A program made the position numbers and the translations under genes. A stretch of DNA of 30,562 bases, taken from NCBI GenBank assembly GCA_963657025.1, contig CAVKLS010000001.1:2529-33090 (forward strand). The letters run 5' to 3'. Below the pieces are notes generated by a model. That model saw only the letters and a list, made by a program, of their open reading frames with translations, made no database searches and was not told the DNA's origin. The DNA comes from a bacterium (lineage in GTDB: Bacteria > Bacillota > Clostridia > Oscillospirales > Acutalibacteraceae). Positions 1-14,895 of this stretch are shown in pieces (position 1 is the stretch's first letter; every line of letters begins with the position of its first letter).

Positions 1-2
1 CT

Positions 3-716
3 CTATCGAATGATAGCATTTACGTCGGTTTTAATTCCAAGCATTATGACCAGTTCATTATCAAGGCTATAGTCGGTAACTTGTCTCCTGAGGAAATCAA
101 ACAGGTCAATGATTACATTGTAGGCGGCGGTCAAGGTTGGCAGTGCTCACTTCTCGAGGGTATCTATTTCAAATTCAATAATGTTGACATTCGAGACGAC
201 ACTCAACAAGGCTTATCGCTCAAAGCGATTGAGGGACATTTAGGGATGCCAATCAAAGAGTCAAGCGTATCGTTTGACCTTAACAGACCGTTGACAGCAG
301 CGGAGAGAGCAGAAACCGAGTTCTATTGTAAGCACGATGTTGACACTACAGAGAAGCTTGTTGATATCCGCAAAAACTATCTCAAAAACAAGATTAATCT
401 CGGAAGACTTGCAGGACTGGACGAAGTTAAAGCTTTGAGTATGACCAATGCCAAGTTGACGGCGGCAATGCTGCAAGCACAGCTTAAGCCTCACGATGAT
501 GAACGTGAGTATGTGTATCCGTCAAATCTCAAGCGTGAATACATACCGACAGAAGTGTTTGAATTTTTCGACAGATTAAATGATAAAAGCATTCCTGACG
601 AGGAAGTGTTCAAAGGCAAGCGTAATCTGATGATTGGCGAGTGCCCTGTTACTCTCGGATACGGCGGTATTCACGGTGCTATACCTAATTATTTTTGGAG
701 TGAGGGCGACCGATGA
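3..716 (+). CDS. Family-B DNA polymerase, N-terminal 3'-5' exonuclease part (5'-truncated by window)
   Basis: The frame of the 81..716 ORF is open from base 3: LSNDSIYVGFNSKHYDQF (ExoII-like GFNxxxYD), later YCKHDV (ExoIII-like), ending just after GYGGIHG, which normally precedes PolB motif A. Confidence 0.85.
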   Translation, partial: LSNDSIYVGFNSKHYDQFIIKAIVGNLSPEEIKQVNDYIVGGGQGWQCSLLEGIYFKFNNVDIRDDTQQGLSLKAIEGHLGMPIKESSVSFDLNRPLTAAERAETEFYCKHDVDTTEKLVDIRKNYLKNKINLGRLAGLDEVKALSMTNAKLTAAMLQAQLKPHDDEREYVYPSNLKREYIPTEVFEFFDRLNDKSIPDEEVFKGKRNLMIGECPVTLGYGGIHGAIPNYFWSEGDR

Positions 717-2389
717 GAATTATCCGCAATTTTGACGTTTCAAGCTACTACCCGCACTTAATGACCGTCAACGGTTACACTTCCCGTAACATTCCGAGCC
801 CTAAAATATATGAAGACGTTCTCGAACGAAGAATGAGAGCGAAAGCGGCGGGAGACAAAGCGACCGCAAACGCACTTAAGCTTGTATGCAACACCACATA
901 CGGTTGTCTTCTTAATCAATACAACAACCTCTACGACCCTTTAATGGGGCGTTCGGTGTGTATCTCAGGACAGCTGTATTTACTTGAACTGGCGATGCAC
1001 TTATATCGAGATGTCGAAGAACTTAAAATCATTCAGCTCAACACTGACGGTATAATGATTGAATTTGACGATTCGCAGTATAGCGTAGTCAATGATATTG
1101 TAACTGAATGGCAGAGGAGAACGGGCTTTGACCTCGAGGAGGATAAAATCTCTAAAATCGTTCAAAAGGATGTTAACAATTACATTGAAATCCAAGCCGA
1201 CGGAACAGCCAAAGCGAAAGGTGGATATCTTGTAAAAGGTGTTGCACCGGCGGGCGCATTCAATGTGAATAATTCTTGCGTGATTGTTGCAACTGCTCTA
1301 AAAGAATTCTTTGTGAAGTGTATACCAGTCGAGGACACTATTAACAACTGCAATGACATTTTAAAGTTTCAAATCATCGCAAAAGCGGGAGCAAAGTACA
1401 AGGAAGCTTATCACCTGATTGACGGAGTCAAACACTCTGTTCAAAAGGTAAATCGAGTTTACGCCACCGCTGACAAGCGATACGGAAAAATCTACAAAGT
1501 CAAAGCTGAGAACGACTCCGAAGCTAAGATAGATTCACTTCCTGAACATTGCATAATCGATAACAACAACGAGCTAACTATAGACGATATCGACAAGACT
1601 TTTTATATCGATATGGCTAAAAAGCGAGTTGACGATTTTAAGGGCATAAAGCCCGAAAAGAAAACAAGGAGGAACAAACAAATGGCAAATCCAACCAAAC
1701 AGCAGAATGTGTATCAGAAGCTGATTGAAGCAAGAGAGAGGTTTCTCATCTCGGACATCAATCAGAGCGGAAAGAACATGCAGCTCTCATTTAAATATTT
1801 TGAGTTGAAAGACATTGTACCGACTGTCACACATATCTTTAATGACATGGGGCTTGTCGCAATAGCAAGCTTCACTGACACCGTGGCAACTCTTACAGTT
1901 GTAAACACCGAAAAGCCCGAAGAAAGAATAGATTTTCCTGTCCCATTCAATCAGATTCAGCCGATAGTTTCTAACGCTGGAAAACAGGTCACGAACGACA
2001 TGCAGGCACTCGGTAGCTCTATTACTTACATGAGACGATACTTGTATCTCATTGCTATGGACATCTGCGTTAATGACGATATCGAGCCGACGATTGACAA
2101 GAGCACAAACAATCAGGCATCTGTTCCTACCGTGACAGAGCGTAAGCTTCCCGCTACACCAGAGCAGAGAAAAGAAGTCAAAGAGACTTTGACCGCACCG
2201 TCTGATAATGCAACACCGTTACAGATTAAGGGGCTTAAAAACGTGCTCAAGAAGCTCAGAGAAGCAGACCCAAGCAAGGAAGAGATGATTAATAATCTTG
2301 CTGTTCAGACCACAGGCTTTACCGTTATTTCAAAGGCGGACTGCGAGACTTTGATTCAGAAAATAACCGCAATGTTGGAGGGTAAATAA
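713..2389 (+). CDS. Family-B DNA polymerase catalytic part fused in frame to an ERF-family ssDNA-annealing domain
   Basis: Motifs A DVSSYYP, B KLVCNTTYG, C NTDG; PolB-like C-terminus IDKTFYIDMAKKRVDDF; no stop before ERF-like sequence (QALGSSITYMRRY). ATGA overlap with upstream ORF, GGAGTGAGG upstream. Confidence 0.88.
   Translation: MRIIRNFDVSSYYPHLMTVNGYTSRNIPSPKIYEDVLERRMRAKAAGDKATANALKLVCNTTYGCLLNQYNNLYDPLMGRSVCISGQLYLLELAMHLYRDVEELKIIQLNTDGIMIEFDDSQYSVVNDIVTEWQRRTGFDLEEDKISKIVQKDVNNYIEIQADGTAKAKGGYLVKGVAPAGAFNVNNSCVIVATALKEFFVKCIPVEDTINNCNDILKFQIIAKAGAKYKEAYHLIDGVKHSVQKVNRVYATADKRYGKIYKVKAENDSEAKIDSLPEHCIIDNNNELTIDDIDKTFYIDMAKKRVDDFKGIKPEKKTRRNKQMANPTKQQNVYQKLIEARERFLISDINQSGKNMQLSFKYFELKDIVPTVTHIFNDMGLVAIASFTDTVATLTVVNTEKPEERIDFPVPFNQIQPIVSNAGKQVTNDMQALGSSITYMRRYLYLIAMDICVNDDIEPTIDKSTNNQASVPTVTERKLPATPEQRKEVKETLTAPSDNATPLQIKGLKNVLKKLREADPSKEEMINNLAVQTTGFTVISKADCETLIQKITAMLEGK
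1682..2389 (+). CDS. erf: ERF-family single-strand annealing protein from an internal in-frame start (235 aa)
   Basis: AAGGAGG at 1666-1672, 9 nt before in-frame ATG 1682; MANPTKQQNVYQKL...FKYFELKDI...GSSITYMRRY matches ERF family signature. Confidence 0.8.
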   Translation: MANPTKQQNVYQKLIEARERFLISDINQSGKNMQLSFKYFELKDIVPTVTHIFNDMGLVAIASFTDTVATLTVVNTEKPEERIDFPVPFNQIQPIVSNAGKQVTNDMQALGSSITYMRRYLYLIAMDICVNDDIEPTIDKSTNNQASVPTVTERKLPATPEQRKEVKETLTAPSDNATPLQIKGLKNVLKKLREADPSKEEMINNLAVQTTGFTVISKADCETLIQKITAMLEGK

Positions 2390-3424
2390 ATGAAAGAAAT
2401 CAAATGGTTAGAGGGTAATCGTATTCAGATTGAGCCGCCGAAAAAAACGAAGAAAGTGACAGGAACACGCTTTGCAACAATCCTCGGACTTAATCCGTGG
2501 AGCACCGCTTTTGAGATGTGGTGTGCCATCACCAAAACTTACGAAAAGCCTTTTGAGGATACTATCTATACTGTAGCAGGTAAGACAATCGAGCCGAAAC
2601 AGGCTAAGTACATGGAGCAGTCTTACGGTATGGACATTGTAAGACCGTCTGATGTATGGGGCGAAGATTATTTTAGTAAGACATGGGGCGACTTCTTCCC
2701 TGAGAACAAGCACCTCGGCGGTATGTGGGACTACCTCATGAAGAGCGAAGACGGAGAACACATTGAAGCCGTTCTTGAGATGAAGACAACCAAGCGTGCC
2801 GAAGATTGGAGCAAGGATGTTCCCGAGTACTACGCTTTACAGGCGGCGTTATATGCATATCTCTACGGTGTAGATGATGTAATAATGGTTGCTTCATTCC
2901 TCGAAGACAAAGACTATGAGCACCCTGAAGACTACACGCCGAACGCAAACAACACTATTACCGTAGAATTTAAGGTCTCAGAACGCTATCCTGATTTTGC
3001 CGGCAAGGTAGCAACTGTTGAGAAGTGGTGGGCAGATTACGTTGATACTGGAATCTCTCCTGAATACGACGAAAAGAAAGACGCTGAAATCCTTGCGGCA
3101 CTCAGAACGAACACTCTATCCCCTGAGACTGACCTTGAAGCACTTATTGCAGAAGCCGAAAGCCTAAAATCCGAATTGGACGAAGCGGCGGCAAGCACAG
3201 CCGAGAAGGAGAAAAGACTCAAGACCATTACCGACATAATCAAGGAACACGCTTTATCACAGTTTCGAGAGGGTGACAAGAAGGTTGAGGTCAAGGGCAA
3301 CACTTACACATGGACTGTCTCTCGTTCAGAGACAACTACGGTTGACAAGACCGCTCTAAAGGCAGACGGACTTTTGGATAAATATTCAAAAAAGTCTGAA
3401 ACATACAGAATAACAGTCAAATAA
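2390..3424 (+). CDS. YqaJ-like (lambda-exonuclease family) recombination nuclease
   Basis: TGTRFATILGLNPWSTAFEMW, GKTIEP, EMKTT and PEYYALQ motifs; adjacent to annealing protein. Confidence 0.88.
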   Translation: MKEIKWLEGNRIQIEPPKKTKKVTGTRFATILGLNPWSTAFEMWCAITKTYEKPFEDTIYTVAGKTIEPKQAKYMEQSYGMDIVRPSDVWGEDYFSKTWGDFFPENKHLGGMWDYLMKSEDGEHIEAVLEMKTTKRAEDWSKDVPEYYALQAALYAYLYGVDDVIMVASFLEDKDYEHPEDYTPNANNTITVEFKVSERYPDFAGKVATVEKWWADYVDTGISPEYDEKKDAEILAALRTNTLSPETDLEALIAEAESLKSELDEAAASTAEKEKRLKTITDIIKEHALSQFREGDKKVEVKGNTYTWTVSRSETTTVDKTALKADGLLDKYSKKSETYRITVK

Positions 3425-3438
3425 GGAGGATTGACAAC

Positions 3439-3912
3439 ATGGCACGAATACCAATGACAAGCGGATTTACTCTCATTCCTGAAGGTGGATATGTGTTCAG
3501 GATTTACGACGCACATTATGACGAGGATTTTGGACGAATTGAAATCAAACTCGTCACAGCTAAAGGGCAGACTCACACAGAGCGTTTTTCTATCAAAGAC
3601 AAGGACGACAATTTCAACGAGAAAGCACTCGGAGCGTTCTCTTACTTTGCTAAAACAGCAATGAATGATTTTGAGTTGGAAGACATAGATGTGAAGGAGC
3701 TTGTAGACCATTATATCTGGGCGGAAATTAAGCACACGAAGCATCCGAACCGCAACGACCCGACTAAGACTGTCACATTCGCTAACTTAGGTGAGAAAGC
3801 ACCTGTCGACGGATTCGACACTACGCCGACACCGAAAGCACTTAACTTAGGACCTGAAGACGCACCGAAAACCGCAAGCACAGGACTCAACATTGACGCA
3901 CTTTTAGGTTGA
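3439..3912 (+). CDS. Putative phage single-stranded DNA-binding protein (DUF669-like)
   Basis: FTLIPEGGYVFRI N-terminal motif, flexible C-terminal tail, position after exonuclease/annealase, AAGGAGG RBS. Confidence 0.65.
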   Translation: MARIPMTSGFTLIPEGGYVFRIYDAHYDEDFGRIEIKLVTAKGQTHTERFSIKDKDDNFNEKALGAFSYFAKTAMNDFELEDIDVKELVDHYIWAEIKHTKHPNRNDPTKTVTFANLGEKAPVDGFDTTPTPKALNLGPEDAPKTASTGLNIDALLG

Positions 3913-3931
3913 GAGAGTTAACTCTCTCAAC
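3908..3931. repeat. Perfect 24-bp palindrome GTTGAGAGAGTTAACTCTCTCAAC (hairpin; weak terminator or mRNA-stabilising stem)
   Basis: Sequence equals its own reverse complement; overlaps the SSB stop; no long U-tract. Confidence 0.75.
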
Positions 3932-3949
3932 TTCCTGAAGGAGGTAAAC

Positions 3950-4396
3950 ATGATATATCACACTAACGACAAATGGGCGACATTCACTCGATACGACAAG
4001 CACCGCTACACGATAAGCTTAACGCCCGCAATGCTCAAAACCGCCTATTTATGGAGTGGCAAAGAATACATAAGACCGGAAATCGAAGACAACACGGTTC
4101 GTTTCTATCTCGAAGATACCAATATTTCAAAGATGGCAAAGCTGATCAGGGCCCGCAACGGCGTAACAGGTGAAGACTCTGACAGAGAAAAGCCACTGGA
4201 TTTTCTCTACACCTTTCCAAACGAGAAAACGGCTTCGTTCTACGAACCGCTTTTACAAGACAAGTTTTTCTTCACCAAGGACTTTTGCGCTCGCCGAAGC
4301 AACAAAAGAGGCTTGCCGTTAGATGTGCCTTACATAGCTTTAAAATTTAACGACGATTACACGCAGTGGGAAGTGGGAAGGTGTGTGCAAAAATGA
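3950..4396 (+). CDS. Hypothetical protein (148 aa)
   Basis: AAGGAGGT RBS directly upstream; first gene of a chain of coupled ORFs. Confidence 0.8.
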   Translation: MIYHTNDKWATFTRYDKHRYTISLTPAMLKTAYLWSGKEYIRPEIEDNTVRFYLEDTNISKMAKLIRARNGVTGEDSDREKPLDFLYTFPNEKTASFYEPLLQDKFFFTKDFCARRSNKRGLPLDVPYIALKFNDDYTQWEVGRCVQK

Positions 4397-6384: not shown

Positions 6385-6585
6385 ATGAACAATTACAACG
6401 AACTTGAGAGACTGATGAAACTAAAAGCGGAAGAACTCGAAAAAGAACTAAAATATCGCGATAATGCCAAAGAGCTTCACGCCATGTATAAGACTTATTG
6501 CAAGGTTGGTTTTACCGAACAACAGGCGTTTGAGCTGGTTAAAGTCGGATTGTATAGCGCAACATTTGCTACTTTAGGAAAATGA
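6385..6585 (+). CDS. Hypothetical protein
   Basis: GAGGTG RBS favours ATG 6385; GFTEQQAFELV motif; ATGA overlap with primase. Confidence 0.75.
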   Translation: MNNYNELERLMKLKAEELEKELKYRDNAKELHAMYKTYCKVGFTEQQAFELVKVGLYSATFATLGK

Positions 6586-7370
6586 ACTACAAAAACATCC
6601 CCAAAGAGCTCCAAGAGCTGAATCAATGGGTATGCGCCACTGCGCACAGTAAAGTTCCGATGAAAGCATGGGAGAATGCGGCGGCATCTTCCACAGACTA
6701 CAAAACGTGGGCAAGCTTTGACGAAGCCCTTGAAGCTTATAATTTGTGGCACTACGACTACTGCGGTTTTGTCTTTGCCGATAACGGACTTGTCGGCATT
6801 GACATTGACTGCGGATTTGATGAAGACGGCTTTATGTCTCCGCTGGCGGCAGACATAATCGGTAAATGCAAAAGCTACACTGAGAAGTCAAGAAGCGGAC
6901 GAGGGTTTCACATTGTCCTCAAAGGTGATTTACCGTTTAAGGGTAAAAACAATCTTAAAGGCGTTGAGATTTATAAATCTGCGAGATACTTCATTATGAC
7001 AGGTGACACACTTCTCTATCAAGACATTTCAGAAAATCAGGAAGCTATCGATTATGTTATTTCAACCTATTTCCCTGAAGAAAGAGAAACGGGCGGCGGG
7101 CATCAGACCGGCAATGTCATTTACGCTCCTAGGTGGGATGAAGCGGTCAATGATTCACATATCAGACTCAGACCGACTTATCCTGAGATAACCAACGGAA
7201 GCCGTAACTTGTCACTTACTTCTCTTGCGGGAGCTCTTCACAACCAAGGATACAGCAAGAACCAAATTTATGATGAGCTTACTTATGTTAATTCCGTCGC
7301 TTGCAATCCGCCGCTTGACAAGTATGAAATTCAGAGCATTTGCAACAGCGTTACAAAATACAAAAGATAG
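6582..7370 (+). CDS. Prim-Pol (AEP-family) primase with PriCT-like C-terminal domain
   Basis: IPKELQELNQWV, GIDID, EKSRSGRGFHI, C-terminal GSRNLSLTSLAG...PPL. Confidence 0.88.
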   Translation: MNYKNIPKELQELNQWVCATAHSKVPMKAWENAAASSTDYKTWASFDEALEAYNLWHYDYCGFVFADNGLVGIDIDCGFDEDGFMSPLAADIIGKCKSYTEKSRSGRGFHIVLKGDLPFKGKNNLKGVEIYKSARYFIMTGDTLLYQDISENQEAIDYVISTYFPEERETGGGHQTGNVIYAPRWDEAVNDSHIRLRPTYPEITNGSRNLSLTSLAGALHNQGYSKNQIYDELTYVNSVACNPPLDKYEIQSICNSVTKYKR

Positions 7371-7381
7371 GAGGAACACCA

Positions 7382-8860
7382 ATGCAGGAGTTTTTCGAAC
7401 TGCGGAACGGTCGCTGTATAATGGATGAAGATTTATCGGCGAAAATGTACTTGATTAAACAAAATCATCCTGAGAAGTCAGACGAGACATCAAGTGGCTT
7501 TGAATGGTCGGAAATGGGCATGGCTAATCTTTTCGGTTTGCTGTACTCACAGGAAGCGAGATACTGCCCCGAACACAAAAGCTGGTTTACGTATCACGAA
7601 GGAGCATGGAGACGGGACGAGGGGGCTATCCTCGTCTCGGAAAAGATAAAGGACTTTGTCCGACTGATGATTTTATATTGCGGTGAAATTGAAGACGACG
7701 ACATCCGTAAATCTTATACGACTTTCGTAAACAAGATGGGTGACAGACGGATGAGGGACAGAATCCTCAAGGACGCAACAGGAGAGCTGCGTATAGCTGC
7801 TAACGAATTCGACAGCAATCCGTATCTCATCAACTGCCTTAATGGGACGTACAACCTTGAAGACTTTACTTTCAGAGAACACAAATGGGACGACTTTCTG
7901 ACAATGCAGACTGCGTTTAAACACACGATATCACGAGATGTAAAATGCGAACGCTGGGAGACTTTCATTGACGAGGTCACACAGGGAGACAAAAACAAAG
8001 CTGACTTCTTACAGCGTGCCCTCGGTTATTCTCTTCTCGGAATGAGCAATGAGGAATGTATGTTTATTCTGCACGGCAAGACTACGAGAAACGGCAAGTC
8101 AACGTTGCTCAACACGATTGAAATAATGCTCGGCGACTACGCCAAGGTTGCGCCTGTTGGGATGATATGCAGAGGAGACAGACAGAAGGATGCAGAAGCA
8201 GCTTCCCCTACTCTTGTAGGGCTTAAGGGCAAACGCTTTGTAACAATGTCCGAAAGTAACGAGTACGGCAAGCTGGACGAGGAGAAAATCAAGCAGCTTA
8301 CAGGCGGCGAGGAGATATCAGCGAGGGCTCTGTATCAGTCGGCTATCACTTTCAAACCTCAATTCACGTTGTGGCTAAGCTGTAATGACTTGCCAATGGT
8401 CACGGATAAATCCCTTTTTGCTTCCGAGAGAATCAAGGTGGTTGAATTTAACCGCCACTTCTCACCTGAGGAACAGGACACGCACCTAAAAGACGAACTC
8501 ACTTCACCTGAAGCCATGAGCGGTATCTTTATGTGGCTGGTCCGGGGGTACATTCACTACAAAGAGCGAGGTCTCACAATGACCAAGGAGCTCAGAAAAG
8601 TTGTTATCGACTACGAAAAAGATAATGATTTGGTTCTCCAGTTCCTCGAGGCACGCTGTGAGAGAGCGGACGACACGGCGATCAAGGCTAAAGACCTTTA
8701 TTCGGCGTACAAGATTTGGGCGAAGTCAGAGGGCGCATTCATTCTATCGGCGAGAAAATTTTACTCAGAGCTTGAAAGGCATCCTGAGTGGTTCGACAGG
8801 AAATTCAAAGGACATGGTCAAATGAGTTATGAAGGACTAAAATTAACGGAGGTAATTTAA
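7382..8860 (+). CDS. D5/P4-family SF3 helicase
   Basis: INCLNGTYNL, LQRALGYSL, Walker A GKTTRNGKST, IKQLTGGEEISARALY; AGGAGG RBS supports ATG 7382. Confidence 0.92.
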   Translation: MQEFFELRNGRCIMDEDLSAKMYLIKQNHPEKSDETSSGFEWSEMGMANLFGLLYSQEARYCPEHKSWFTYHEGAWRRDEGAILVSEKIKDFVRLMILYCGEIEDDDIRKSYTTFVNKMGDRRMRDRILKDATGELRIAANEFDSNPYLINCLNGTYNLEDFTFREHKWDDFLTMQTAFKHTISRDVKCERWETFIDEVTQGDKNKADFLQRALGYSLLGMSNEECMFILHGKTTRNGKSTLLNTIEIMLGDYAKVAPVGMICRGDRQKDAEAASPTLVGLKGKRFVTMSESNEYGKLDEEKIKQLTGGEEISARALYQSAITFKPQFTLWLSCNDLPMVTDKSLFASERIKVVEFNRHFSPEEQDTHLKDELTSPEAMSGIFMWLVRGYIHYKERGLTMTKELRKVVIDYEKDNDLVLQFLEARCERADDTAIKAKDLYSAYKIWAKSEGAFILSARKFYSELERHPEWFDRKFKGHGQMSYEGLKLTEVI

Positions 8861-8861
8861 A

Positions 8862-9059
8862 ATGACACTTTTTAAGAAATGGTTTAAGAAAGAAGTAAGA
8901 CCTAGTTTTGGTCAGTGTGATGAATGCCACAGATGGGTTGAATCACCATCTTATGTTAAACACTACACGGCAAGCCGTTATACAGTACGCCAGCTATGCC
9001 CAGAGTGTGCCGTCAAAGCTATAAAAGATTTTGGAGTGCCCGAGGAGGATTTAAAATGA
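8862..9059 (+). CDS. Small zinc-finger-like protein
   Basis: CDEC...LCPEC pair; GGAGGT RBS. Confidence 0.7.
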   Translation: MTLFKKWFKKEVRPSFGQCDECHRWVESPSYVKHYTASRYTVRQLCPECAVKAIKDFGVPEEDLK

Positions 9060-9361
9060 AAACAGCATTTATATCACAGCCGATGGCGAATAAGTCCCAC
9101 GAAGAAATCAAAGAAACAAGACAGCTTGCAGAGAATGATTTAAAAATTTACGGATATACAGTTGTAGATTCATTGCTCTATACACCGATTGAAACCACTA
9201 AACATAAATCTTTAAGATGTCTTGCGGAATCTTTATCCCTGATGAGCAAATGCGACACTGTTTACTTCTGCAAAGGTTGGAAACAAGCAAGAGGTTGCAA
9301 GATAGAACACGAAGCGGCGAAAGCTTACGGATTGGAAATAATTTATGAGGAGGATAAATAA
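9056..9361 (+). CDS. DUF4406-like / nucleoside 2-deoxyribosyltransferase-fold protein
   Basis: FISQPM...CDTVYFCKGWKQARGCKIEH; GAGGAGG RBS and ATGA overlap support start 9056. Confidence 0.8.
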   Translation: MKTAFISQPMANKSHEEIKETRQLAENDLKIYGYTVVDSLLYTPIETTKHKSLRCLAESLSLMSKCDTVYFCKGWKQARGCKIEHEAAKAYGLEIIYEEDK

Positions 9362-9739: not shown

Positions 9740-10306
9740 ATGGCTAGACAAAAAGACATGAGAAAAAATAATAATCCGACTGGTAGTAAGACTATGAACA
9801 TTGAAAAAGCGTTCAAAGGTGATAGGTCTGAAATCGGTAAAATTTTGAATAATTCTTTTTATTGGTTCAATTATCCTATCGTCAAGACTGATGAAGAGTG
9901 TGCAGAAAGACTTAACGAATTCTTCAAAAGATGTGCTGATAACAACGAGTTACCGACTGTCGAGAAGATGTGTCTTGCTTTGGGAACGGTTAGAAATACT
10001 GTGTGGCAATGGGAGACAGGAGTCATAAATGTATCGCAAGAGAGGAAGAACCTAATCAAAAAAGCGAAGGAAATAATCTCTGCAATGGACGCCGAATTAG
10101 CCGCCACAGGCAAGATTCCAGTGCCGACATATATCTTCCGAGCTAAGAACTACTACGGCATGAGAGACGACCCACAGGTAGTTGTTCAAGTCAACGATAA
10201 TTCGGAGAAGGTGGATATCGAGGATATCAAAAAACGATATCTGACAGACTCACCGCCAACGACTATTGAAACGACTGCAACCGAGACGAAAGAGACAAAA
10301 GAATAA
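9740..10306 (+). CDS. terS: Terminase small subunit
   Basis: PTVEKMCLALGTVRNTVWQWE HTH and IFRAKNYYGMRD motif typical of one TerS family; GGAGGTG RBS. Confidence 0.8.
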   Translation: MARQKDMRKNNNPTGSKTMNIEKAFKGDRSEIGKILNNSFYWFNYPIVKTDEECAERLNEFFKRCADNNELPTVEKMCLALGTVRNTVWQWETGVINVSQERKNLIKKAKEIISAMDAELAATGKIPVPTYIFRAKNYYGMRDDPQVVVQVNDNSEKVDIEDIKKRYLTDSPPTTIETTATETKETKE

Positions 10307-12368: not shown

Positions 12369-12620
12369 ATGACAGCTAAAGAAATAATCGTCGAAGCAAT
12401 GAAAGTAAGAGGATACAATCAGACAATGCTTGCAAAAGAAGCGGGACTGAAAAGACAGTCTAATGTCAGTGAAATGCTCAGAGGTAAGAGTATGCGAGTC
12501 GATAACTTTGTATTGTTGCTTGACAGCATGAATTTTGATATAATAATAAAAGACCGAAACGGAGCTAACAGCACAAAGTGGGTGCTTGAAAACGCTGTGT
12601 CCGAGGACGAACCGAAATGA
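12369..12620 (+). CDS. XRE-family HTH protein
   Basis: GYNQTMLAKEAGLKRQSNVSEMLR; AGGAG RBS favours ATG 12369. Confidence 0.8.
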   Translation: MTAKEIIVEAMKVRGYNQTMLAKEAGLKRQSNVSEMLRGKSMRVDNFVLLLDSMNFDIIIKDRNGANSTKWVLENAVSEDEPK

Positions 12621-13195
12621 TTTACGGTTACGCAAGAGTGAGCACCAAAGGACAGGCGAAAGACGGAAACAGTCTCGAGTATCAAACGAGGGTGTTGGAG
12701 GAAGCAGGAGCGGAGAGAATATTCTGTGACAGCTTTACGGGAACGAAGATAGACAGACCCGAGTTTGATAAGCTGAAATCTTGTTTGGTAAGCGGAGACA
12801 AGCTGATAGTGACGAAGCTTGACCGACTGGCAAGGAGTGCGGCACAGGGCAGTGAATTAATCGAGAGCCTGATTAAAGACGGTGTAACGGTGCACATACT
12901 CAATATGGGAGTGATGGATAATACGCCGACAGGAAAGTTAATAAGAACAATAATGTTAGGATTTGCCGAGTTCGAGAGGGATATGATAGTCCAAAGAACG
13001 CAAGAGGGCAAAGAGGTTGCAAGGAGCAAAGGTATCAGAGTAGACGGAAGACCGAAGCTGAAAATACAAAAAGAGCTTGCCGAAAAAATTCTCGAAAAAC
13101 AAAAAAGGGGAGAAATGACGGTAGACGATTGTATCAAGCAGTTGGGAGTAAGTCGGAGTTACTGGTACAAGGTTGTTGCAAAAGGATTGATGTAA
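12617..13195 (+). CDS. Small serine recombinase (resolvase/invertase family)
   Basis: YGYARVSTKGQ catalytic Ser motif, VTKLDRLARS, FAEFERDMIVQRTQEG, GRP and C-terminal HTH. Confidence 0.95.
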   Translation: MIYGYARVSTKGQAKDGNSLEYQTRVLEEAGAERIFCDSFTGTKIDRPEFDKLKSCLVSGDKLIVTKLDRLARSAAQGSELIESLIKDGVTVHILNMGVMDNTPTGKLIRTIMLGFAEFERDMIVQRTQEGKEVARSKGIRVDGRPKLKIQKELAEKILEKQKRGEMTVDDCIKQLGVSRSYWYKVVAKGLM

Positions 13196-13236
13196 AGTGC
13201 GTTATCGCAAGTAAAAAGGCGGTAGCGTGCTTTTTT
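13194..13236 (+). terminator. G:U-rich terminator-like hairpin directly before terL
   Basis: AAAGTGCGTTATCGC / GCGGTAGCGTGCTTT stem running into TTTTTT. Confidence 0.65.
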
Positions 13237-13251
13237 GTTATGGAGGTTTAT

Positions 13252-14895
13252 ATGAATTTAACAGACGAGATAATGAGTAAAATCAAGGTTGGGAATGAGA
13301 TATATTTTGATTTTCAGCCGTACGAGGATATGTATTTAATTGCAAAGGAGAAAATAAAAGAGGGCGATAAATACGCATTTGAGAGATTGAAAGAAGTCTC
13401 GGAGATAATAATCAACCACATAGGGGAGTTTAAGGACGGCGATATAAGAAGAGTATGGGAGCTGCACAAGAAGATTTTGCTAACACTGGCGAGAAATGAT
13501 TTTGACAGTTTTCTCTTGTATATCGAGTGGAACAGAGAGCCGAAGTCAAAGTTTTATGTTCCGAGAAGAAAGCAGCTGTTGCCGCTGGTGGAAGCACTGC
13601 AAGACTTAGAGGACGATAACTTAGACTTGCTTGCAATATCAATGCCACCCGGAACAGGAAAGAGTACGCTTGCGATATTTTATTTAACTTGGATATCGGG
13701 AAGGCATCCGAACGAGCCGAACTTAGGCGGTTCTCACTCCAACAGCTTTTTGAGGGGCGTATATGATGAGTGCTTGAGAATAATCACGGGAAACGGCGGC
13801 GAATATCTGTGGGGAGATGTTTTTCCTGAGGTGAAGCTGAAGAACACAAACGCAAAGGACATGAGAATAGACCTTGATAAGCCGCAGAGATTTGAAACGC
13901 TGGAGTTTTCATCTATCGGTTCGGGCAATGCGGGTAAAGTGCGTGCAATGAGATTGCTTTATTGTGATGACTTGGTAGACGGAATAGAAACGGCGATGTC
14001 GGCGGAAAGATTAAATAAACTCTGGCAGCAGTACACAACGGATTTAAGACAGAGAAAGATAGGCAAGTGTAAAGAGCTGCATATCGCCACAAGGTGGAGC
14101 GTGCACGATGTTATCGGAAGACTCGAAAGACAGTACCGAGACAATCCGAGGTGTAAGTTTATTGTTTGTGCGGCACTGGATGAGAATGACGAAAGCAATT
14201 TTGACTATCCTTGCGAGGGCGGATTCACCACGCAGATGCTGAGAGAACAGCGTGACATTATGGACGAAGTCTCTTGGAGAGCCCTGTTTATGAATGAGCC
14301 GATAGAAAGAGAAGGCTTGCTGTATCACGAGGACGAATTAAGAAGATACTTTGAATTGCCTGATTCAGAGCCCGACGCCGTTATAGCAGTGTGCGATACC
14401 AAAGACCGAGGAAGCGACTACTGCGTTTTGCCTGTTGCATACGTTTACGGCAATGATTATTACATTGCCGATTGTATATGCGATAACGGAAATCCTGAAA
14501 TAATAGATGTGAGGATATGGCAGGCACTTGTAAACAACCGTGTGCAGATGGCAAGGTTTGAGTCTAACTCAGCGGGCGGCAGAGTGGCAAAGGATGCACA
14601 GACAGCGGTAAACGAACACGGCGGTATCTGTAAAATCACAACCAAATTCACAACGGCAAACAAGGAAACTAAGATTGTTACCAACTCACCGTTTGTCAAA
14701 GAACATTTTCTTTTCAAGGACAAGAGTCTGTATAAGCCAAACACGGACTACGGAAAGATGATGACAATGCTGTGTGGTTACACAATGGCGGGTAAAAACA
14801 AGCACGATGACGTCCCTGATGCAATGGCAATGTTATCAGATTATGCTCAGAGTTTCGGCAGACAGGAAGTCAGAGTATTTAACAGACCTTTTTGA
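13252..14895 (+). CDS. terL: Terminase large subunit
   Basis: Walker A SMPPGTGKS, Walker B LLYCDD, ATRW coupling motif, nuclease HDDVPDA; GGAGGT RBS supports ATG 13252. Confidence 0.95.
   Translation: MNLTDEIMSKIKVGNEIYFDFQPYEDMYLIAKEKIKEGDKYAFERLKEVSEIIINHIGEFKDGDIRRVWELHKKILLTLARNDFDSFLLYIEWNREPKSKFYVPRRKQLLPLVEALQDLEDDNLDLLAISMPPGTGKSTLAIFYLTWISGRHPNEPNLGGSHSNSFLRGVYDECLRIITGNGGEYLWGDVFPEVKLKNTNAKDMRIDLDKPQRFETLEFSSIGSGNAGKVRAMRLLYCDDLVDGIETAMSAERLNKLWQQYTTDLRQRKIGKCKELHIATRWSVHDVIGRLERQYRDNPRCKFIVCAALDENDESNFDYPCEGGFTTQMLREQRDIMDEVSWRALFMNEPIEREGLLYHEDELRRYFELPDSEPDAVIAVCDTKDRGSDYCVLPVAYVYGNDYYIADCICDNGNPEIIDVRIWQALVNNRVQMARFESNSAGGRVAKDAQTAVNEHGGICKITTKFTTANKETKIVTNSPFVKEHFLFKDKSLYKPNTDYGKMMTMLCGYTMAGKNKHDDVPDAMAMLSDYAQSFGRQEVRVFNRPF

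Follow-up and report, generated by a model that had tools for sequence, protein, structure and literature searches.

The stretch of DNA analysed here, 30,562 nucleotides (nt) of contig CAVKLS010000001.1 (contig C1, positions 2529-33090; called the window throughout), carries a gene that is the catalytic half of a family-B DNA polymerase (Pol) joined by a disordered, K/R-rich linker of about 15 residues to a complete ERF annealase. Within the linker lies a second, in-frame start for ERF alone. Because the continuous frame and the internal ribosome-binding site and start are both conserved among relatives, two products, Pol-ERF and free ERF, are very likely made from this one gene, as an earlier note on the same DNA had proposed. 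On balance we favour the view that this is a conserved nested Pol-ERF gene with two products whose fused frame is maintained by selection. The parts of the gene are as follows.

713-2389, forward strand: Pol-ERF open reading frame (ORF), one open frame of 558 amino acids (aa)
713-1663, forward strand: Pol palm, fingers and thumb (aa 1-317), containing DVSSYYP, KLVCNTTYG and NTDG
1664-1705, forward strand: flexible K/R/T-rich linker (aa 318-331), also the putative internal translation-initiation region
1666-1672, forward strand: internal Shine-Dalgarno (SD) sequence AAGGAGG, with a 9-nt spacer (1673-1681) to the ATG
1682-1684, forward strand: internal in-frame ATG, putative start of free ERF, which codes 235 aa to the stop TAA at 2387-2389
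1682-2389, forward strand: ERF annealase (aa 324-558; PF04404, PHROG 155)

The reading frame is unbroken across the junction (KKRVDDFKGIKPEKKTRRNKQ-MANPTKQ, with no stop between). Both the open 558-aa frame and the AAGGAGG 9 nt before ATG 1682, with its 235-aa ERF, agree exactly with the coordinates given in the earlier note. An AlphaFold model built with 48 relatives in the alignment has a mean pLDDT (predicted local distance difference test score) of 85 and consists of a Pol fold (1-317), a disordered stretch (318-328, pLDDT <50), an ERF core at about 333-448, another disordered segment (458-481) and, at the C-terminus, a helical domain (483-556). Residue 324, the internal Met, is predicted to lie mid-tether between the Pol and ERF folds, and the mRNA of the linker is A-rich and unstructured. 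The ERF half exceeds the Pfam cut-off (PF04404 at aa 334-472, 34.8 bits against 25), and aa 313-556 match the Erf-like families PHROG 155 (expectation value, E, 2e-21) and PHROG 2324 (E 3e-17). Pol residues 4-317 match PHROG 1252 'DNA polymerase' over profile positions 351-659 of 663 (E 3e-88). No Pfam PolB model matched the Pol half at E up to 0.01, the NCBIfam Pol II model matched it far under its own cut-off (E 1e-5), and sequence matches in the PDB to Pol II and Pol alpha were marginal (E 0.09-0.6). The polymerase is nevertheless assigned to family B because its model is confident (pLDDT >90 across most of the Pol region) and its top structural matches are PolB and Pol alpha. With the whole-protein model as query, Foldseek placed archaeal PolB and Pol alpha first (E 6e-9, probability 1.00) at template modelling (TM) scores of about 0.35-0.41 on the query, the ERF part being unaligned, and polymerases were the only matches returned. 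Family-B polymerases carry, in order, a DxxSLYPS-like motif A, a Kx3NSxYG-like motif B and a DTD-like motif C; we take DVSSYYP, KLVCNTTYG and NTDG to be these three motifs, NTDG being a variant rather than DTD. An alignment of 48 relatives shows at least 90% conservation of residues K56, N60, G64, N110, T111, D112 and G113.

Related loci (L-numbers) and database proteins (P-numbers) are those of this analysis. Loci were sampled by ERF alone because selecting for the fusion was to be avoided; this gave 80 viral, 78 species-representative-genome and 80 metagenome loci, the last located by searching with a 'free ERF' from a database. Left out of the counts were L001 and L009, which are copies of the window itself, and the duplicates L018 and L066. 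Among 247 loci with an ERF match, most of them sampled in this way, Pol and ERF are fused in frame without a stop in 178, Pol is immediately upstream but separate in 32 and further upstream in 18, and 19 are without Pol, several of these at contig ends. Joint conservation of the frame and the internal ribosome-binding site had been named beforehand in the earlier note as the test of its proposal. Beside the fused frame of these 178 loci, all 142 unique fused genes have a start and an SD. Linker stops or random frame relations, which would have spoken against it, did not appear among the closer relatives: wherever ERF is at least 50% identical to that of the window and Pol is present, the junction is fused, and no linker contains a stop. 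The apparent exception, L228, has a frameshift inside Pol, yet its Pol tail still runs into ERF. In the metagenome set 77 of 80 loci are fused, the remaining three being two contig ends and L228, and 16 extra loci obtained with another 'free ERF' query are all fused or ended by a contig edge. A search of IMG/VR with the whole protein returned seven loci at 56-74% identity, each with Pol and ERF in a single frame (7/7). Fused genes also occur in cultured isolates, for example of Dorea, Criibacterium, Lacrimispora, Catenibacterium and Adlercreutzia, and an 848-aa Pol joined to an Erf-like domain of greater divergence is encoded in a complete genome from the same bacterial family. Among the best 120 of 2,286 long ERF relatives, 115 are about 517-570 aa (the split form) or 827-846 aa (whole Pol plus ERF) in size, and a Pol domain is present in 45 of the best 150 representatives at 50% identity (among 1.84 billion proteins). 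In most relatives the whole polymerase, not just its catalytic half, is joined to ERF.

Errors of assembly or sequencing in the scaffolded metagenome-assembled genome (MAG) could also produce an open junction, or the change of frame between the exonuclease and catalytic halves of Pol; another source of an open junction would be a stop lost very recently and in this genome alone. The source MAG is indeed fragmented, with 379 contigs and 61 runs of N, one of which, 44 N long, interrupts this very polymerase gene. The junction is open, however, in all 178 independently assembled fused loci, stops are absent from the linkers of the closer relatives described above, and L099, L005, L007, L024 and L255 are split at the same site as the window's polymerase, with their own start codons, so that an artefact is hardly credible. 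Databases also hold many ERFs whose first residue is exactly the conserved Met; they are ~225-245 aa long and 57-86% identical. As proof of stops in relatives, such 'free ERF' entries were rejected where the DNA could be compared: P0150 and P0200 correspond exactly to parts of open fused frames, P0138 sits at the edge of a contig, and the probable contig of P0130 has 59 nt ahead of the ERF ATG, in which the Pol tail is in frame. P0143 (225 aa, on a contig of up to 156 kb) falls in a 90% cluster that also holds a 532-aa fused member.

The internal start is conserved at the level of nucleotides. Across 142 unique complete fused proteins, the column of Met324 holds M in 138, V in three and T in one, and the flanking columns vary freely. 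The corresponding codons are ATG (138), GTG (3) and ACA (1), the last in L124, where CAGGAGGAAAAT-ATG (AGGAGG type) is present a few codons downstream. The SD duplex energy is -8 kcal/mol or lower at 95% of the junctions; among the 1705 remaining in-frame ATGs of these genes, 2.6% reach this value. The internal SD of the window, at -11.2 kcal/mol, equals those of undisputed gene starts of this phage. When the set is reduced to 51 fused representatives at 90% identity, the start codon and the SD are each present in 51/51, the SD is at or below -8 kcal/mol in 47/51, the spacer is 8-10 nt in 42/51, and Ala is the second residue in 46/51. GGAGG occurs in codon phases 0, 1 and 2 in 6, 24 and 10 of the 51 representatives, under 46 distinct hexapeptides, and is read as RR, GG, KE, LEV or EEV depending on phase. 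Before the start, Arg is encoded by AGG in 53 of 69 cases (114 of 1042 elsewhere) and Gly by GGA in 16 of 18 (381 of 1456 elsewhere). RNA around the start is A-rich (58% versus 32%), and in 73% of representatives the start region ranks within the least structured 10% of windows. Unfused relatives begin ERF at the homologous Met. Since GGAGG is kept in all three codon phases under so many hexapeptides, the nucleotide signal itself is under selection.

These observations bear on whether the fusion protein might be the only product, the Met and the purine-rich stretch being a mere linker and ERF acting in cis as a single-stranded DNA (ssDNA)-binding or primer-annealing domain. The continuous frame means that ribosomes translating Pol must enter ERF, and the basic linker could bind DNA, both of which suit such a protein. 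It is nonetheless highly improbable, because protein constraint explains neither the three phases of GGAGG, nor the GTG (Val) starts of three genes, nor the rare AGG and GGA codons before the start, nor the Ala conserved at position +2, and because ERF begins at this Met where it is unfused. The pattern lies beyond the reach of constraint on the protein, and a working initiation site could produce it. A consensus scan of the forward strand from 1 to 4000 detected no internal promoter before ERF (4 sites against 6.0 expected). A programmed frameshift in the linker, of the dnaX kind, was rejected as no in-frame slippery heptamer is common to the junctions inspected.

The origin of the fusion is suggested by relatives in which the two genes are adjacent. 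In these, the ERF SD lies in the last Pol codons (...LEV) and the Pol stop precedes the ERF ATG by 2-6 nt, the two being in one frame in some cases. With the stop so close, and sometimes in frame, one substitution is enough to fuse the genes. Comparison of sequences shows that the fusion arose, in all likelihood, from this adjacent-gene layout through loss of the Pol stop. The same layout could also serve a neutral explanation, in which free ERF and the Pol domain alone are functional: a stop between the ERF SD and ATG is easily lost in these closely packed modules and the resulting read-through is tolerated, the C-terminal ERF appendage of Pol, or of another upstream enzyme, being harmless on its flexible linker while free ERF is still made. 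Conservation of the internal start, which implies that free ERF is needed in every case, agrees with such tolerance, and so does the history of the fused state. A FastTree tree of Pol from 83 representatives (54 fused, 29 separate) needs six state changes, at least three of them forced by well-supported branches; read without a root, it does not separate gain from loss of the fusion.

Tolerated read-through sits less well with the depth and constancy of the open frame. Fused forms fill several deep clades of the Pol tree, one large clade having separate genes, and the fused frame spans Pol divergence to about 40-50% identity. Fused linkers have 20 distinct lengths of 16-43 aa (142 unique genes), all in frame, and none of the 178 fused loci has acquired a stop despite a mean of 8.2 single-base routes to one per linker. 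The third-position tree length is ~36 substitutions per site over 51 fused representatives, and the neutral expectation is roughly 50-100 stop gains, or ~24 for the SD-to-ATG codons alone, compared with the six changes on the tree; this estimate is rough, with third positions saturated, rates unequal and A-to-T rates left unmodelled, which counts against leaning on it heavily. The linker opens, moreover, with a conserved motif, GIKPEKK, in which 137 of the 142 genes have the G, 128 the I, 125 the K and 124 the P. As state changes are far fewer than the neutral estimate of stop gains, purifying selection seems to act on the open frame, and we consider it fairly probable that the fused product is kept by selection. 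Tolerated read-through is rather unlikely in comparison.

What the two products might do together is suggested by the ERF half. Its profile matches the ring-forming Erf homologue Gp77 (9y6u, E 1.8e-4), and Gp77 of SEC-phi27 is described as assembling in 24-fold rings (PMC13017515). A complex prediction with four ERF cores scored 0.68, compared with 0.00 for the best of three controls, and passed a mark that was reached by 20 of 30 solved proteins with same-chain pairs and 1 of 23 single-chain solved proteins; it used a custom alignment and four copies, unlike the calibration, and with a solved Gp77 ring the pass may reflect likeness. The prediction runs have at least 55% contact agreement and partner pLDDT of at least 64. 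Predicted contacts are head-to-tail on two different faces, as in an open-ended or ring oligomer, and the interface includes the first ERF helix, which starts eight residues after the internal Met. The prediction supports self-association of ERF. The tether is short, and a ring made of Pol-ERF alone looks crowded, which would fit a need for free ERF.

In the mechanism proposed here, ribosomes from the Pol start would read through the linker and make Pol-ERF, and ribosomes loading at the internal site would make free ERF. In this genome the internal SD has greater strength than that of the Pol-ERF start, and free ERF is therefore probably the more abundant product. The ERF part of Pol-ERF would join free ERF in forming the oligomeric rings that characterise the family, and the mixed rings would keep a few Pol molecules at ssDNA resected by the adjacent YqaJ exonuclease. 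Annealed 3' ends could then be extended at once, in genome circularisation, gap filling or recombination-dependent replication. That mixed rings tether Pol to annealed ssDNA is a tentative idea, for which we would give somewhat less than an even chance; it draws on knowledge of the family and on the single complex prediction of ERF self-association.

Several observations weigh against the favoured interpretation, at the level of selection or of mechanism. ERF expression might suffer from stops upstream of the SD for reasons unrelated to the fusion. The fused state has been gained or lost at least six times, and a large clade functions with separate genes. Bulky Pol near the N-terminal helix of the predicted interface could hinder ERF assembly. 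A phage primase is present, so synthesis need not depend on primers made by annealing. ERF relatives, moreover, also occur in frame with an upstream PAPS-reductase-like PP-loop enzyme, radical SAM enzyme or DNA methyltransferase, and the fusion may reflect a fusion-tolerant ERF N-terminus rather than a polymerase-specific function, as tolerated read-through would have it. Fusions of ERF to enzymes other than Pol, and three-part open frames, are found at these places.

L119, 2966-4711: ERF fused to a PAPS-reductase-like enzyme
L141, 2399-4078: ERF fused to a PAPS-reductase-like enzyme
Protein P0244: ERF fused to a PAPS-reductase-like enzyme
Proteins P0268, P0248 and P0372: further ERF fusions to enzymes other than Pol
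L070, 1133-4678; L142, 15-3554; protein P0242: three-part frames

The three-part frames are C5 methyltransferase-PolB-ERF (1181 and 1158 aa) and radical SAM-PolB-ERF (1179 aa). In L141, AAGGAGG and ATG are again kept at the ERF boundary. The PAPS-reductase-like fusion is a shallow minority (16 of the best 120 relatives of the PAPS-reductase-like enzyme), whereas most ERF relatives at 50% identity or more have the Pol fusion, a difference that argues against general tolerance as the full explanation. Either ERF accepts whatever cargo is placed at its N-terminus, or it serves DNA enzymes in general as a platform. As a platform, the ERF ring would consist mostly of free ERF, with few subunits carrying a covalent enzyme (Pol here; PAPS-reductase-like, radical-SAM or methyltransferase enzymes elsewhere), and we regard this as an unlikely generalization. 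If it were true, a ring on exonuclease-resected ssDNA would deliver synthesis or DNA modification where strands anneal, and with Pol it would be a minimal coupled annealing-and-extension machine for circularisation and recombination-dependent replication. In L070 the usual start Met of Pol reads Ile, and Pol is perhaps made only as a fusion there.

In the window the polymerase is itself divided, its exonuclease half being encoded by a separate ORF upstream.

3-716, forward strand: exonuclease (N-terminal) half of Pol, separate ORF, matching PHROG 1252 positions 100-343
697-715, forward strand: SD-like GGAGTGAGGG (697-706) and start ATG 713 of Pol-ERF, SD duplex -8.4 kcal/mol

The stop of the exonuclease ORF, TGA 714-716, overlaps ATG 713 as ATGA. 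We take YDCEV, upstream of a gap of N, and GFNSKHYDQF and YCKHDVD, in ORF 3-716, to be the exonuclease motifs ExoI-III. The gap is a 44-N scaffold gap (C1:2485-2528) just before the window, inside the exonuclease half; it truncates ORF 3-716 on the 5' side, and the frames differ on its two sides. The exonuclease and polymerase are split in 18 of 212 loci and unsplit in 194, and the split site is constant, just before motif A. It is shared by L099 (the closest relative, 87% identical), L005, L007, L024 and L255, in which each half has its own start. Stop/start overlaps with their own SD occur at the split as ATGA in the window and L005 and as GTGA in L007 and L255. In other loci whole genes are inserted exactly at this site (L118:2490-2990, L008:3206-3949, L152:1685-2981). 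The insert of L118 is an HNH_3 homing-type endonuclease (E 2.4e-9); those of L008 and L152 belong to no clear family, one having a faint C5-methylase match. The split site looks like a hotspot of mobile-gene insertion that leaves a two-subunit polymerase behind. The split is real, and it is outside the conserved design. The detachable proofreading subunit of the earlier note is therefore borne out as a separate ORF in this genome and not as a general feature, being a minority state among the relatives. An alternative genetic code, or read-through of TGA 714-716, was ruled out, since the polymerase resumes in another frame and not past the stop.

Each element of this arrangement has known counterparts. 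Nested in-frame genes include T7 gene 4 (gp4A/gp4B), phiX174 A/A* and the long and short forms of Escherichia coli ClpB, and long and short forms can share a ring. Pol-ERF resembles the T7 gene 4 type in being a single ORF with an internal SD and start, whose shorter, C-terminal form carries the oligomerisation module. It differs in that what is nested is a whole gene, ERF, which was independent in its ancestry and was captured when the Pol stop was lost, and in that its parts come from two pathways, replication and recombination; co-assembly is only proposed here. P22 Erf forms rings. The window shares with P22 Erf and SEC-phi27 Gp77 an ERF domain above the Pfam cut-off and nearby genes for an exonuclease and, in the window probably, for an ssDNA-binding protein. 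Known Erf proteins stand alone, whereas here and in the 178 fused loci the frame continues upstream into a polymerase. Split family-B polymerases include gp43A/gp43B of some T4-related phages and the split archaeal PolB. As in these, the exonuclease and catalytic polypeptides are divided at a fixed site, where relatives carry mobile genes (HNH in L118); unlike them, the split falls immediately ahead of motif A, varies among members of a single phage group, and leaves a catalytic half that carries an annealase. Non-covalent couplings are known for lambda Red-beta with SSB, for SPP1 G35P with helicase and SSB, and for T4 UvsX and gp32 in recombination-dependent replication. In these, as is proposed here, products of annealing or strand exchange are brought to the replication machinery. 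Those systems rely on contacts between proteins; in Pol-ERF the annealase is covalently attached, and to the polymerase itself.

No match spanning the Pol-ERF junction was found in 50,697 deposited phage records, and no description of a polymerase-ERF fusion was found in the literature searched, which included the main texts of two surveys of annealing proteins, in keeping with the earlier note, which knew of no described system with this architecture. The words 'polymerase', 'fused' and 'fusion' are absent from the main text of a survey of 10,280 single-strand annealing proteins (PMC11783212), and Lopes et al. 2010 use neither 'fused' nor 'fusion' (PMC2896510). Database names for Pol-ERF proteins do not go beyond one 'hypothetical protein'. 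Nested in-frame starts and split family-B polymerases are known, and a polymerase-annealase fusion that is widespread and conserves a nested start for ERF looks like a new form of such known arrangements. Hand-off of annealed recombination intermediates to a polymerase is usually ascribed to transient protein contacts. A covalent polymerase-annealase link, long kept in many gut phages and prophages, would make that hand-off testable with one gene. If the fusion is functional, a polymerase-tethered annealase could be of interest for recombineering. If it is neutral, it would be a clean natural case of coupled genes that fuse while a nested start saves the downstream product. There are also implications for annotation. 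These genes are now unnamed, called 'ERF' alone or 'hypothetical'; Pfam PolB misses the polymerase, gene callers cannot report the nested ERF, and at least three database 'free ERF' entries are actually pieces of fused frames.

Two further recombination genes follow Pol-ERF.

2390-3424, forward strand: YqaJ/lambda-exonuclease-type (RecE-like) recombination exonuclease, PF09588 (E 2.8e-11, 44.3 bits against a cut-off of 22)
3439-3912, forward strand: probable OB-fold ssDNA-binding protein, model pLDDT 76.5

The YqaJ gene begins one base after the ERF stop and also matches PHROG 434 (E 6e-27). The earlier note had placed a YqaJ exonuclease and an SSB directly after ERF; the former stands, and the 'SSB' label is plausible on the structural model and weaker than first stated. 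Profile searches gave no family match for ORF 3439-3912. With its model, Foldseek gave the plasmid ssDNA-binding protein PrgE (8s4t) as the best match (E 5.8e-4, TM about 0.5), and classical SSBs at E of about 0.01-0.08. The acidic C-terminal tail of this protein, LDxDxLLG, is conserved in 25 aligned relatives and may be a partner-binding tip.

The wider window reads as a temperate siphovirus-type phage of gut anaerobes. PHROG matches identify an SF2 helicase just upstream of the window and, within it, a primase in two ORFs, the small and large terminase, portal, major head protein, tail tube, tape measure and tail fibre. The primase or primase-helicase is likewise encoded by two overlapping ORFs in different frames (6582-7370 and 7340-8860), which match positions 1-193 and 312-756 of the 772 positions of PHROG 1829 and could be a second split replication gene or a frameshift. 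A serine recombinase/DNA invertase gene (12617-13195; PHROG 125, E 4e-52) lies between the small (9740-10306) and large (13129-14895) terminase genes and overlaps the listed start of the latter. After the primase is a nucleoside 2-deoxyribosyltransferase-like gene (8996-9361; PHROG 355, E 2e-21), which hints at modification of nucleotides or DNA bases.

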